13,792 nt of DNA, from the UHGV virus genome UHGV-1763989. The stretch is one strand, 5' to 3'. This document shows, in pieces, positions 545 through 5,185 of the stretch. Under the pieces are notes generated by a model. That model was not told the origin of the DNA. It saw only the letters and a program-made list of their open reading frames with translations, and made no database searches. The stretch's first letter is position 1. Every line of letters begins with the position of its first letter. The stretch comes from a virus. The position numbers and the translations under genes are program-made.

Positions 545-668
545 TCGAAACAAAGACGACCGATCCAGAATGCGCGGTACGGCCCGTCATACCACAGTTT
601 GAAATAACCCCACTTACTGTAACTGTTCCAGCTTACGGCGAACCAGTACCCGGCACATTTTAGTTTCA

Positions 669-839
669 TTACGGGTTTTCCTTAATATACTTAGCCAGTT
701 TTTCACCTTTATTCAATTTCTGAATTAAAAGCGTATCAGATAAAGAACATGGTGGATTAACCACTATCCAGTTATTTTCAACAGTAATTTGATGACCAGC
801 AGCACGTAAACGTTTAACCAGTTGTTCTATTTCTTTCAT
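669..839 (-). CDS. Unlisted small ORF (56 aa), hypothetical
   Basis: Hand-translated: ATG 839..837, GGGAGA 10 nt upstream, 2 nt after the stop of the HD gene; MKEIEQLVKRLRAAGHQITVENNWIVVNPPCSLSDTLLIQKLNKGEKLAKYIKENP. Below the 60-aa track threshold. Confidence 0.4.
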   Translation of the reverse strand: MKEIEQLVKRLRAAGHQITVENNWIVVNPPCSLSDTLLIQKLNKGEKLAKYIKENP

Positions 840-841
840 AA

Positions 842-1459
842 TCACAGATCTCCCATCGCTTTAACCAGTGCGTCGTAGTGTTTGTCAAACGCGGTTAACT
901 GGACGTTCGTTAGTTTGTATTTGGCTTTAAACAATTCACGCTCAACAAGCGCGTATAACTCCTGATTACTGGCGTCTGACAGGTGAGCAAGCATGAGTTG
1001 TTTTTCAGCCAGGTATGTTACAGCAAACTTCGGATCGTGTCGGACAATTGAAGAGGTGTTATCCAGCAGATCACACAGTTTTATAGTTTTCACCACAGGT
1101 TCAGCCCGTGATAAATGGTCGATATCCCGTGCTTTACGCTTAACACGGTTGCCGTGGTGTGGACGACTCACATCAGTAAGCTGATCAACATAACGTGCCA
1201 CAGTCTCACCGAACTGCGAACACACATCACCCACGGTCACGGGCGTATCTTCAACGACGTCATGCAGCCAGGCAGCGGTAACCATATCCGGCGTACCACC
1301 ATAGCGTTTAACCAGTTCAGCAACGTTCCGGCAGTGGTTCACATATGGGTCGTTGGTGTACTTACGAAGTTGATCACCGTGTGCTGCTGTTGCGAATTGT
1401 TCAGGTGTCATCATAGTTTTTGATAGTGGTGAAAAACCAAGTTGAAGTTTAGTGCTCAT
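842..1459 (-). CDS. HD-domain phosphohydrolase, RelA/SpoT (Mesh1/small alarmone hydrolase)-like
   Basis: Motifs AAHGDQ ... DPYVNHCRNVA ... AAWLHDVVEDT ... FGETVARYV match the SpoT/RelA hydrolase HD signature. Track start 1465 is TTG; first ATG is 1459, 2 nt after upstream stop, AAAAGGG upstream. Confidence 0.8.
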   Translation of the reverse strand: MSTKLQLGFSPLSKTMMTPEQFATAAHGDQLRKYTNDPYVNHCRNVAELVKRYGGTPDMVTAAWLHDVVEDTPVTVGDVCSQFGETVARYVDQLTDVSRPHHGNRVKRKARDIDHLSRAEPVVKTIKLCDLLDNTSSIVRHDPKFAVTYLAEKQLMLAHLSDASNQELYALVERELFKAKYKLTNVQLTAFDKHYDALVKAMGDL

Positions 1460-1461
1460 AT

Positions 1462-1725
1462 TCAATACCCTTTTAATTTTCTACACTCAGGACAGCGCCA
1501 TCTACCTTTTTGATAAACTCGCGCATGACCACGTTTACATTTATTGGTTACCAGTGATATACCGAGACGTGACGCTTTAATGTGCACCGCTTCAACGTCC
1601 CGGCGAAGGTAATACGCTATTTCGTCCGCACTGATCTTTCCTGCATTAATTTTTAATAACGCCAGATCTCGTGCGGACCATTTCAAACCGTTACGAGGGA
1701 ACCTGTTAGTCGAATACTCATACAC
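1462..1725 (-). CDS. Small HTH DNA-binding protein with C-terminal zinc-ribbon-like Cys/His cluster (start uncertain)
   Basis: WSARDLALLKINAGKISADEIAYYLRRDVEAVHIKASRLGI resembles GcrA/sigma-70 region-4-type HTH; C-terminus CKRGH...CPEC. Track start 1857 is GTG and overlaps the upstream gene by 140 nt; GTG at 1725 has AAAAGG 7 nt upstream, ATG at 1797 is the alternative. Confidence 0.55.
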   Translation of the reverse strand: MYEYSTNRFPRNGLKWSARDLALLKINAGKISADEIAYYLRRDVEAVHIKASRLGISLVTNKCKRGHARVYQKGRWRCPECRKLKGY

Positions 1726-2206
1726 GAACACACCTTTTACGAAGCTGTATGGCGCGATTATTGGCCTGCTGGAGAACCATCTTCCATCCCACAACATCGT
1801 GCATATCAGATGAGCACGACTGATTGGAGAATTTGACCAACATTGTTTCAGCCACACCAGCTAAACTATCAAGTTCGCTGGCCCGTACTTCAGCCAGGAA
1901 AGAGTCGGTGGCTGGAGTTTCAGTGAGCTCACTAACCCAGTCGGGTCCAAATTCTTCTGCGCACATCTTATCGAACTCACGCTCAGATTCTTTCAGCTTT
2001 GCATTCTCCGCCGCCAGAGCCGCGCACTTGGCCTCAAGGTTATCAATCGTGATTCCAGCAGAACGACACTCCCGCAACGCCGTTTCTAGTTTTGATTCAA
2101 GTTCAGCAAATTTACGCGCCAGATATTCAGCGTTTGTTTCGTTAACTTTCAGGTCGCCCGGAATACATTTACCACGAAGAAAACCTTCCATTTCATATAC
2201 AGTCAT
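1718..2206 (-). CDS. Hypothetical protein, predicted coiled-coil (162 aa)
   Basis: ATG start verified; heptad-like Ala/Leu/Glu/Lys-rich segment (AELESKLETALRE...LEAKCAALAAENAKLKESEREF). No catalytic motif recognised. Confidence 0.6.
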   Translation of the reverse strand: MTVYEMEGFLRGKCIPGDLKVNETNAEYLARKFAELESKLETALRECRSAGITIDNLEAKCAALAAENAKLKESEREFDKMCAEEFGPDWVSELTETPATDSFLAEVRASELDSLAGVAETMLVKFSNQSCSSDMHDVVGWKMVLQQANNRAIQLRKRCVRV

Positions 2207-2431
2207 TTAACGCACCTCGACATCAATTATTAAATCTTCTGGTACTGTCACCACAACGCGGTCGTTTTCGCAAAATGGTGACAGCGGTTCCTCTTCCGGT
2301 TGTAAGCGAATGGTAAGTGTTGCCCCGTGGTAATTGATATAGCGTACCCAATACCAATCGTTAAACACTTCAATCTTGTCACCCGGTTTAATATCACGGG
2401 CAACGGTTGGATTTATCAGTCGGATAGTCAT
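2207..2431 (-). CDS. Hypothetical protein (74 aa)
   Basis: ATG start; ATGA overlap with upstream gene stop; same strand, dense packing. Confidence 0.55.
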   Translation of the reverse strand: MTIRLINPTVARDIKPGDKIEVFNDWYWVRYINYHGATLTIRLQPEEEPLSPFCENDRVVVTVPEDLIIDVEVR

Positions 2432-2724
2432 ACTTTCACCTCACGGTTAGAACAGCCACGTTCAATCATCCAATCCTGAACAGGAAAGCGACTACCGAAT
2501 ACTTTTGTTTCTTTATCGTCACAGAAACGCCAGTTTTCCGCTTCAGGCCAGTTTAATTTAACATGGTGTTCTGCCTGTTTTTGATCATCAACATCGACCA
2601 AAGCAACAAGCGTTGCACCTTTTTCAACATGTCCTGTACACCACCACGCGAGAATCTTTTCAGTAGGCGGGTAATTGATCGGACGATAATCATCGGTTGG
2701 TTGATACCAAGAGATCCATTTCAT
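2428..2724 (-). CDS. Hypothetical protein (98 aa)
   Basis: ATG at 2724; TGATG overlap with upstream gene stop. No motif recognised with confidence. Confidence 0.6.
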   Translation of the reverse strand: MKWISWYQPTDDYRPINYPPTEKILAWWCTGHVEKGATLVALVDVDDQKQAEHHVKLNWPEAENWRFCDDKETKVFGSRFPVQDWMIERGCSNREVKV

Positions 2725-2924
2725 CAGAACACCTTTTTAATTAATTGATAGATCAGTACAAGAATCGACAGTACCAAGTAAAAAGGCCAGAAGATCGTGA
2801 TTAGCACAAAACAAATTATTTGAATTTTCCAACCCGGGTTAATTCGTGTTAATTTTGCATCAATGTAATCTAATAATGCATTCAGAACACCCAGTATCAG
2901 ATACAATGACAATAATTTAATCAT
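2724..2924 (-). CDS. Small hydrophobic membrane protein (66 aa, two predicted TM segments)
   Basis: Sequence is almost entirely hydrophobic (LLSLYLILGVLNALL ... IICFVLITIFWPFYLVLSILVLIYQLI); ATG start, coupled to neighbours. Confidence 0.6.
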   Translation of the reverse strand: MIKLLSLYLILGVLNALLDYIDAKLTRINPGWKIQIICFVLITIFWPFYLVLSILVLIYQLIKKVF

Positions 2925-3085
2925 TTCTTTTTACTCCCGGTTAGTTTAGCAATCCAACGATTTTCATTAACGCTGGGAAAACTGTTATTGAACTTACACT
3001 GACGTTCTTCTTCTTCTTTTGTCAACGGTTTAAATTTAGAACGACAGGTCAATGTACCGTAAATTGATGTTAAGTTGTCTGACAT
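2921..3085 (-). CDS. Unlisted small ORF (54 aa), hypothetical
   Basis: Hand-translated: ATG 3085..3083 with AAAGGAG 9 nt upstream; stop TGA overlaps next ATG (ATGA at 2924..2921); MSDNLTSIYGTLTCRSKFKPLTKEEEERQCKFNNSFPSVNENRWIAKLTGSKKK. Confidence 0.45.
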   Translation of the reverse strand: MSDNLTSIYGTLTCRSKFKPLTKEEEERQCKFNNSFPSVNENRWIAKLTGSKKK

Positions 3086-3088
3086 AAA

Positions 3089-3277
3089 CTAGTCTCCTTT
3101 AGTGCGCAGGTGGTTTTTCCAGCGGTTTTGCGCCGCGCTGGGCTTTTTGCAAAAACCACAATCCATCATCCCGTAATATTTTATTAACCCCATTCGTCGG
3201 TTGCTGAGTCTCACCCACTGCCAGACGCCGGGACCGTTTCTACGAACTAACAGAATCTTTGCTTTACGGTTTTTCAT
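3089..3277 (-). CDS. Small basic protein (62 aa), hypothetical
   Basis: ATG start; 4-nt overlap with ParB-like gene stop; Arg/Lys-rich. Confidence 0.5.
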   Translation of the reverse strand: MKNRKAKILLVRRNGPGVWQWVRLSNRRMGLIKYYGMMDCGFCKKPSAAQNRWKNHLRTKGD

Positions 3278-4047: not shown

Positions 4048-4076
4048 TTAGCCTCATGTGTGTTAACTGAGGCTAA
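4048..4076. promoter_or_regulatory. Perfect 9-bp inverted repeat (TTAGCCTCA-N11-TGAGGCTAA), candidate operator
   Basis: Arms 4048-4056 and 4068-4076 are exact reverse complements; lies between the predicted -10 and the ParB-like start codon and covers its GAGG ribosome-binding site. Confidence 0.5.
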
Positions 4077-4115
4077 TTATCGGGGAGGTTTGGTAATCTG
4101 TCAAGAATTATTTTA
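4076..4115 (-). promoter_or_regulatory. Sigma70-like promoter with A/T-rich upstream element (internal promoter for ParB-like gene)
   Basis: Minus strand AAAATAATTCTTGACAGATTAC: -35 TTGACA (4104..4099), 17-nt spacer, -10 GATAAT (4081..4076). The 22-nt element is identical to the copy at 11014-11035. Confidence 0.6.
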
Positions 4116-4508
4116 AGGATATGGAACCCACACAGTTAAACCAGCTTTCAACATGCGACGATGCATATCAGCAGTACCACGCCCACCGGGGAACACAACA
4201 CCGTATGTAGGACGTGGCTCACCCTCTAACATCGCCTGATTACGTTGATGACCTGCAACAGCGTTATAAGCCCCGTGCTTACCCTGTTTTACAACCGCAC
4301 CAGGTACAGTCAGATCGTCCCACGCTGCCGGGCAACTACGCACAGGAATACCGTGTAATTGCGCCCATTGCTTACACAGGTTATCAACACCTGACGCACC
4401 ACCTTCAATTAGTTCGGTAACCGGAAATTGTTTGTGAAGTAGTCCTAACGCGGAAAACACTGCTGTTCTGTCGTTAAAGTCACGACCACCTGTGACGACA
4501 ATTATCAT
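4113..4508 (-). CDS. DUF2493-like protein (SLOG/LOG-like Rossmann fold)
   Basis: IIVVTGGRDF ... EGGASGVDNL ... GIPV ... VVFPGGRGTADM matches the DUF2493/SLOG pattern (GGR near N-terminus, PGGxGT near C-terminus). ATG start; ATGA overlap with next gene. Confidence 0.75.
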   Translation of the reverse strand: MIIVVTGGRDFNDRTAVFSALGLLHKQFPVTELIEGGASGVDNLCKQWAQLHGIPVRSCPAAWDDLTVPGAVVKQGKHGAYNAVAGHQRNQAMLEGEPRPTYGVVFPGGRGTADMHRRMLKAGLTVWVPYP

Positions 4509-5185
4509 TGTTTATTAGCCTCAAATACAGCGCGAGCAAAACCACGCGGGGTTAATGAACGTAACTGTTTAGTTGTTTCAGACTTACCACCCAGATATTT
4601 CCAGCCCCAGAAGAAACCAATATTAATCGGTCCAGGACGTTTTTCAGGCATTCTGAAACCGTTACCGAACCACAGACATGTTTTCTTCGTGTATCCGTCA
4701 AACATCGGCATTTTAGGGTGAAAAGGTTTATCATCTGTTGTCATATAACCGCCATATTCCCACGGATGAAAATAAGCGTCAGGTGTCCCCATCATTTCAG
4801 GACGTGATAAAGCACCGACAGGGTTTTCGACCATCCAGGGTACATCATAACGTTCTCCAAGTTCCCGGATTAGTTTTGCGTTTGCCAGTGCATACTGTAG
4901 TTCAGCGTCATCCCGGTCATGTTGTGAACCGCTTTGAGCAAACAGGGTGCAATCCGGGAAACCAAAAATAATCGACGGTAAAGGTGTTCCCAGTATTTCC
5001 TGCTTAATTGCAAATTGTGGGTCAATCCACTGATTAACGTAATGAAGATTGGGGTGATCAGCTTTAATAAAATATTCCCCGTGATTAGCGGAATCAGCAT
5101 TAAAACAATAAACCTGATAACCATGTATCGCCCACGGTAAACCCATAATCCCGGAACCGTCGAACAATGACCAGACAATTTTCAT
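4505..5185 (-). CDS. DNA (cytosine-5)-methyltransferase-like protein, atypical and short (226 aa)
   Basis: SLFDGSG (motif I-like, res 6-12), FGFPDCTLFAQSG (motif IV-like, PDCT in place of PCQ, res 77-80), MVENPVG (motif VI-like ENV, res 120-122); spacing parallels M.HhaI-type enzymes, but no obvious target-recognition domain. Confidence 0.65.
   Translation of the reverse strand: MKIVWSLFDGSGIMGLPWAIHGYQVYCFNADSANHGEYFIKADHPNLHYVNQWIDPQFAIKQEILGTPLPSIIFGFPDCTLFAQSGSQHDRDDAELQYALANAKLIRELGERYDVPWMVENPVGALSRPEMMGTPDAYFHPWEYGGYMTTDDKPFHPKMPMFDGYTKKTCLWFGNGFRMPEKRPGPINIGFFWGWKYLGGKSETTKQLRSLTPRGFARAVFEANKQ

Follow-up and report, generated by a model that had tools for sequence, protein, structure and literature searches.

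Stand-alone hydrolases of the RelA/SpoT family encoded by phages are an already described, and partly tested, kind of protein. Two small alarmone hydrolases (SAHs) of this kind, from Salmonella phages SSU5 (PaSpo) and PVP-SE1, each neutralised all five of the toxSAS (toxic small alarmone synthetase) toxins tested in the work of Jimmy et al. 2020 (PMC7229694), namely CapRel, PhRel, PhRel2, FaRel and FaRel2, and the authors proposed that phages could use such enzymes to bypass alarmone-mediated abortive infection; a bypass of toxSAS-based abortive infection has likewise been proposed. [quoted passage not shown] Leaky expression of PaSpo neutralises FaRel2, an effect that the authors, citing earlier work, attribute to removal of the tRNA modification (PMC11245113), and PaSpo was also used to make the expression of CapRelSJ46 tolerable. 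The gene for the latter toxin is carried by a temperate phage of Salmonella as well as by prophages of E. coli, with related systems in Enterobacter and Klebsiella. Throughout the literature that we searched, the case for the phage SAHs is built on rescue by co-expression in E. coli rather than on experiments with infecting phage. Other roles have been described or suggested: in certain toxin-antitoxin loci and MuF-toxin loci of phages, an SAH acts as the antitoxin or immunity protein (ATfaRel/FaRel, Aph1/Apk2), and metabolic reprogramming has been proposed for those of large lytic phages (PMC12846349).

The SAH considered here lies on a 13,792-nt stretch of virus genome UHGV-1763989 (hereafter the window), which is ~96% identical to Escherichia phage KarinMuster (Bas82), a siphovirus of the Sashavirus/Nonanavirus (9NA-like) group, and to other 9NA-like siphoviruses of E. 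coli and Salmonella. On the minus strand, a complete ORF at 842-1459 runs from an ATG at 1459 to a stop codon at 842-844 and encodes 205 aa; the ORF list gives 207 aa, counted from an alternative in-frame TTG at 1465, two codons 5' of the ATG. A first-pass annotation had recognised this ORF as a stand-alone RelA/SpoT-type HD hydrolase from the motifs HGDQ and AAWLHDVVEDT, which are indeed present at residues 27-30 and 62-72, and had staked the identification on a profile search against the RelA/SpoT HD family. The search bears it out: residues 21-142 match Pfam HD_4 (PF13328) with 56 bits against a gathering cut-off of 27.2 (E 5e-15), and the generic HD domain is the only other Pfam domain found. 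The NCBIfam model spoT_relA (TIGR00691) is matched with an E-value of 1.4e-20 at model positions 4-122, that is, at its hydrolase end only, and the NCBIfam SpoT model is also matched at its N-terminal hydrolase part, these matches to long RelA/SpoT-homolog (RSH) models falling far under the full-length cut-offs. Neither the Pfam nor the NCBIfam profiles detected a synthetase, TGS or ACT domain in the 205-aa protein. PHROG 990, 'metal-dependent phosphohydrolase', is hit at E 2.6e-39, and sequence matches in the PDB (E 4e-15 to 1e-9) are to MESH1, Rel/SpoT hydrolase domains and SAHs, the best of them including Listeria Lmo0812, human and fly MESH1, and the SAHs of C. glutamicum, L. levettii and P. 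aeruginosa.

Alignment with MESH1 locates a full active site. R32, K33, Y39, H42 and H66 correspond to MESH1 R24, K25, Y32, H35 and H61, and D67, E70, D71, D130 and N134 to D62, E65, D66, D122 and N126; all ten residues are invariant in an alignment of 47 homologues. By this correspondence, codons R32-H42 (RKYTNDPYVNH; 1334-1366, minus strand) would supply the substrate-binding Arg/Lys, Tyr39 and the first metal-ligand His42, codons HDVVEDT (1244-1264, minus strand) the metal-binding pair H66/D67 and the catalytic pair E70/D71, and codons D130-N134 (DLLDN; 1058-1072, minus strand) the last metal-ligand Asp and a conserved Asn, so that the metal-binding H42, H66, D67 and D130 and the catalytic E70/D71 are all kept. 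The AlphaFold2 model built on the same 47-homologue alignment is all-helical, with 11 helices, a mean pLDDT of 93.8 and a pTM of 0.88; its pLDDT does not fall under 94 beyond about residue 20 and is below 50 at residues 1-10, with disorder confined to residues 1-12. When this model was compared with the PDB using Foldseek, human MESH1 came out on top (TM 0.79-0.82 on the target, rmsd 2.1-2.5 Å), followed by the SAHs of C. glutamicum, P. aeruginosa and L. levettii and the SpoT and Rel hydrolase domains, with a probability of 1.00 to MESH1, SAHs, SpoT and Rel alike. Given these profile, residue and fold matches, together with the lack of synthetase, TGS and ACT domains, we conclude from sequence and modelled structure that the protein is a single-domain RSH hydrolase, i.e. 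an SAH, for which Mn2+-dependent hydrolysis of a 3'-pyrophosphate is predicted by analogy with its family.

MESH1 is the best structural match (human and Drosophila structures 3NR1, 5VXA, 9CHY and 3NQW) and its catalytic constellation is identical; would the phage enzyme then share its substrates? The MESH1 complexes among the best structural matches contain NADPH or PAPS, and the metazoan enzyme is reported to act as an NADPH phosphatase. As MESH1-like enzymes hydrolyse NADPH and bind PAPS, the in-cell substrate could be something other than an alarmone, perhaps one of these two compounds, another 3'-phosphorylated nucleotide or a signalling nucleotide of a defence system. We regard such a phosphatase role as improbable: the protein shares only 26-28% of its residues with MESH1, its nearest relatives are SAHs of phages and phage-plasmids for which anti-toxSAS activity has been demonstrated, and no neighbouring gene suggests NADPH or sulphur metabolism. 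The phage protein also departs from MESH1 by insertions specific to its subfamily and by an additional helix at the C-terminus.

The closest tested relative is PaSpo of SSU5 (SSU5_099, AFL47026.1), with 50% identity over residues 9-163 (E 4e-45), a level which limits how far the analogy can be taken. By pairwise similarity, the window SAH would thus sit closest to the PaSpo subfamily of Jimmy et al. 2020. Both are stand-alone phage HD_4 proteins of around 200 aa without an adjacent synthetase, and they agree in their catalytic residues and in the subfamily motif around SRPxxGNR, whereas their C-terminal 40-50 residues are unrelated. Their genomes differ too, SSU5 being a 103-kb temperate phage and the window SAH belonging to a 55-58-kb 9NA/Sasha-like siphovirus. 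No solved structure of SSU5 PaSpo is present in the PDB. For comparison, MESH1 and Rel score at ~1e-13 to 1e-9, whilst PVP-SE1 gp220 (PbcSpo), also a stand-alone single-domain phage SAH, aligns at 35% identity over 74 aa with an E-value of just 3e-5; this weak match points to a different subfamily, and membership of PbcSpo was ruled out on the same grounds. An Aph1-type, ppApp-only hydrolase is likewise disfavoured. Aph1 (PDB 7SMG), with signature residues D24, R96, D116, R119, K133 and Y134, is an HD-domain 3'-pyrophosphohydrolase too, and phage-encoded in some cases, but its similarity to our protein is weak (phmmer E 0.004; TM 0.46), it has a compact fold of 8 helices and adjoins a MuF toxin where ours is modelled with 11 helices and has no toxin neighbour, and by an indirect residue mapping Arg32 sits at the MESH1 R24 position, where the ppApp-specific Aph1 has Asp.

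The one part of the earlier description that needs revising is the length. Whilst the 205-aa ORF is real, the conserved enzyme comprises 189 aa, from Met17 to Leu205 plus the stop (842-1411, minus strand, the Met17 codon starting at 1411), as judged by its relatives' lengths of 189-194 aa, by the pLDDT profile and by Bas82_0088, a 189-aa protein to which residues 17-205 are 100% identical. The 16 codons before it (1412-1459, minus strand) are a relic of a fusion. The first 15 residues of Bas82_0087, an 81-aa protein assigned to DUF7446 by profile search (E 3e-18), recur unchanged as residues 1-15 of the fused protein, and codon 16 is a Met at the junction. In Bas82, the start of the SAH gene overlaps the stop of the DUF7446 gene (ATGA); relative to that phage, the window carries a 194-bp deletion, flanked in Bas82 by the direct repeat ATCATG, which joins DUF7446 codons 1-15 in frame with the SAH and has cost the window its neighbouring DUF7446 gene. 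A Shine-Dalgarno-like AAGGG (1468-1472, minus strand) lies 8 nt 5' of the ATG at 1459, and the same stretch precedes Bas82_0087 in the DNA alignment. It was presumably the ribosome-binding site of the DUF7446 gene in the first place, and translation of the fused protein probably starts at the old DUF7446 start by means of it. Both the fused and the unfused arrangement circulate in nature (the loci concerned being 1412-1459 of the window, minus strand, and 6809-7054 of L001).

Could the ORF be a decaying or inactive gene, or its 205-aa form an artefact of assembly or annotation? Its N-terminus is, after all, a fusion created by deletion, and a variant fused at the C-terminus is also found in databases: in P0133, of 247 aa, the SAH C-terminus runs into the downstream 56-aa gene (…AMGGVVIMKEIEQ…), corresponding to window 669-1411 (minus strand), which could be either a real frameshift fusion or a sequencing error. 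We give this reading almost no credence. At least 18 metagenomic contigs of ~55 kb, derived from independent samples (ENA, JGI and Logan), encode an identical 205-aa protein, and for this reason the fused form is not an artefact; the same protein is also deposited in NCBI nr as DAI71357.1, labelled RelA/SpoT family. The catalytic residues are intact and invariant, and the 570-nt core differs between the window and Bas82 by 15 synonymous and no non-synonymous changes, from which we conclude that it is under strong purifying selection. Decay is refuted by these conservation data. Two antisense ORFs inside the SAH gene (993-1184 and 1115-1423, plus strand) are without support and were set aside.

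Close orthologues are few. Apart from Bas82, whose core is identical, they occur in PDP46, AVIO78A, PJ16, 536P12, BDX09P1 and Salmonella phage FSL SP-062/SP069, with identities of 98-99% in the five E. coli phages of this list and of 91-92% for the two partial SP-062/SP069 fragments, and a search of phage records returned a close orthologue in no other. They occupy the same genome position, are 189 aa long, start with MTPEQ and overlap the upstream DUF7446 stop, in contrast to the fused form in the window. Their database labels vary between metal-dependent phosphohydrolase, polyphosphate hydrolase and '(p)ppGpp synthetase', of which the last is wrong and 'polyphosphate hydrolase' wrong or vague. 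With the exact protein already deposited and machine-annotated, our finding mostly confirms an existing annotation, that of a real but ordinary SAH. More distantly, significant homologues are present in more than 280 phage records, and proteins with 40-50% identity are frequently encoded by non-mobilizable plasmids in Klebsiella, Enterobacter, E. coli and Salmonella whose length, ~108 kb, is close to that of SSU5. Two close metagenomic relatives that we sampled are found on phage-like contigs which also encode terminase and replication proteins. In bacterial data reduced to one genome per species, the best matches reach at most 55% identity and are taxonomically scattered. When 5,426 complete E. 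coli genomes were searched in distant mode, no copy of the SAH core was recovered, the only match being the 51-nt DUF7446 remnant, which corresponds to DUF7446 genes in E. coli chromosomes; an origin of the SAH from the host is ruled out by this absence.

By analogy with the SAHs that are paired with a toxin, as described above, the phage SAH might be a type IV antitoxin, or an immunity protein, against a toxic alarmone synthetase of the phage's own. An example is C. marina ATfaRel, a PbcSpo antitoxin and single-domain SAH which adjoins its toxin; the window SAH has no toxin neighbour. No alarmone synthetase domain (RelA_SpoT, PF04607) was found in the 16.6 kb around the SAH on a near-identical contig, none among the scanned neighbours or adjoining the SAHs of the two sampled relatives, and none is annotated in the complete Bas82 genome or present among its larger hypothetical proteins. 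The SAH is an orphan and not an antitoxin, and the pairing that makes up a toxSAS-SAH type IV module is missing from this locus. An antitoxin or immunity role was therefore rejected as very improbable, being largely refuted by the missing synthetase, both nearby and in Bas82.

Within the genome, the SAH gene belongs to a string of tightly packed small genes, with a gap of 2 nt on each side of it, and lies on the strand common to the helicase, exonuclease, primase, methyltransferase-like, SLOG (YAcAr) and ParB-like genes. Phage Sasha lacks the whole block between the ParB-like and DUF1382 genes, the SAH included. Considering that the block is absent from Sasha and that orthologues are few, we interpret the SAH as accessory cargo in a mosaic region, part of which (1875-2208) has counterparts of about 78% nucleotide identity in lambdoid and Stx phages; the block has the look of a hotspot for variable accessory genes where the replication-gene string ends. 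It covers about 550-3270 of the window (minus strand) and holds around ten small genes including the SAH, and in Sasha its place is taken by one gene of 63 aa (gp78), which immediately follows the ParB-like gene.

Perhaps the SAH serves host takeover only, hydrolysing host (p)ppGpp so that transcription, translation and replication keep running under starvation or stress. The fold and the catalytic residues are those of the (p)ppGpp hydrolases MESH1, SpoT and Rel, the Arg at the MESH1 R24 position (again by inferred mapping) sets it apart from the ppApp-specific Aph1, and genes for stand-alone SAHs are widely distributed among large lytic phages infecting Pseudomonas, Erwinia, Vibrio and Caulobacter, for which the reprogramming role mentioned above was put forward (PMC12846349). 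On the other hand, the SAH is dispensable within its genus, since Sasha is without the block and no further phage record has a close orthologue; a mosaic accessory block is a location more typical of counter-defence cargo; and the closest tested relative acts on the products of toxSAS that are not alarmones. We hold host takeover as the sole role to be unlikely, though far from negligible, and it and a role against toxSAS are not mutually exclusive.

We consider it reasonably probable that the protein is an active 3'-pyrophosphohydrolase which acts on alarmones and on pyrophosphorylated tRNA, with counter-defence against toxSAS as its main function and the collapse of (p)ppGpp coming second. 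We favour the neutralisation of toxSAS because of the nearest tested homologue and the accessory distribution. In this scheme, the SAH gene probably shares its transcript with the replication and accessory genes of the phage; the first-pass annotation had placed it in an early-gene block, which is plausible judging from the strand and from the helicase, primase and exonuclease neighbours. Its product would be a metal-dependent 3'-pyrophosphohydrolase, using Mn2+ if it behaves as its relatives do, and would remove the 3'-pyrophosphate from (p)ppGpp and (p)ppApp as well as from tRNA CCA ends pyrophosphorylated by toxSAS. The most likely benefit to the phage would be to counter toxSAS-type abortive infection, for example by a CapRel carried on a Salmonella or E. 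coli prophage, and the (p)ppGpp pool of the host would collapse as a second, non-exclusive effect. As CapRelSJ46 is found in a temperate phage of Salmonella and in prophages of E. coli, such systems are plausible targets within the host range of this phage. The roles suggested for the SAH at first pass are those already proposed for phage SAHs and partly tested (PMC7229694), and the accompanying caution, that substrate preference is not readable from sequence, is a fair one; that description did not include the SSU5 and PVP-SE1 enzymes tested in 2020, nor pyrophosphorylated tRNA, which is probably relevant as a further substrate.

We tentatively put forward a more specific proposal, judging it possible rather than probable: that the orphan SAH of a virulent siphovirus strips the CapRel-type 3'-pyrophosphate from tRNA during infection, and so allows escape from abortive infection. 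A weaker addition would be that the adjacent DUF7446 protein, whose gene was lost here by fusion, modulates the SAH. If CapRel counter-defence were found to operate in infection, it would, going by the literature that we searched, be the first demonstration of an anti-toxSAS enzyme at the level of infection. The identical core is present in Bas82, which is culturable and publicly shared, and close relatives naturally carry or lack the SAH; with this isolate and the SAH-lacking relatives, a clean genetic test is possible in the standard E. coli K-12 system. The BASEL paper describing Bas82 makes no mention of alarmones or CapRel and recognises no extra functional locus, and its authors observed no extra robustness of Bas82 to the defences tested, a set which did not include toxSAS.

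As for transcription signals, a sigma-70-like site (TTGACA-17 nt-GATAAT, 11 of 12 consensus positions) lies at 4076-4104 (minus strand), in the 71-nt gap between the SLOG and ParB-like genes and upstream of the latter. As a candidate promoter of the co-directional genes among which the SAH lies, it is only a lead, because the total number of such sites does not exceed the shuffled expectation; indeed, total counts from the promoter and terminator scan of the window were at or below that expectation. No RNA features were detected in the whole window by an Rfam scan at gathering thresholds or by a tRNA scan.

Several of the genes around the SAH have features of their own. Immediately upstream of it, an 87-aa protein (1462-1725, minus strand; 131 aa in the ORF list, from an upstream GTG) combines a helix-turn-helix-like segment with a C-terminal CxxxH…CPEC zinc-ribbon-like motif, and weakly matches the PHROG 'transcriptional regulator, D5-like' (E 2e-6). 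The SLOG-family protein of 131 aa (YAcAr/YspA; 4113-4508, minus strand; Pfam E 1e-19) is conserved in Sasha and labelled 'GTP-binding domain' in relatives. Next to it, a 226-aa protein (4505-5185, minus strand) is labelled in relatives as a C-5 cytosine or DNA methyltransferase, a label that is unconfirmed because the protein has no Pfam match at E <= 0.01. The accessory block also has DUF1382 (112-318) and DUF2737 (2921-3085) genes. Finally, the stretch at 1875-2208 (minus strand), which is the N-terminal part of a 162-aa gene at 1718-2206, has ~77-80% DNA identity to lambdoid and Stx-converting phages such as HK629, HK106 and HK620; small accessory genes thus seem to be common to this virulent siphovirus and temperate lambdoid phages.
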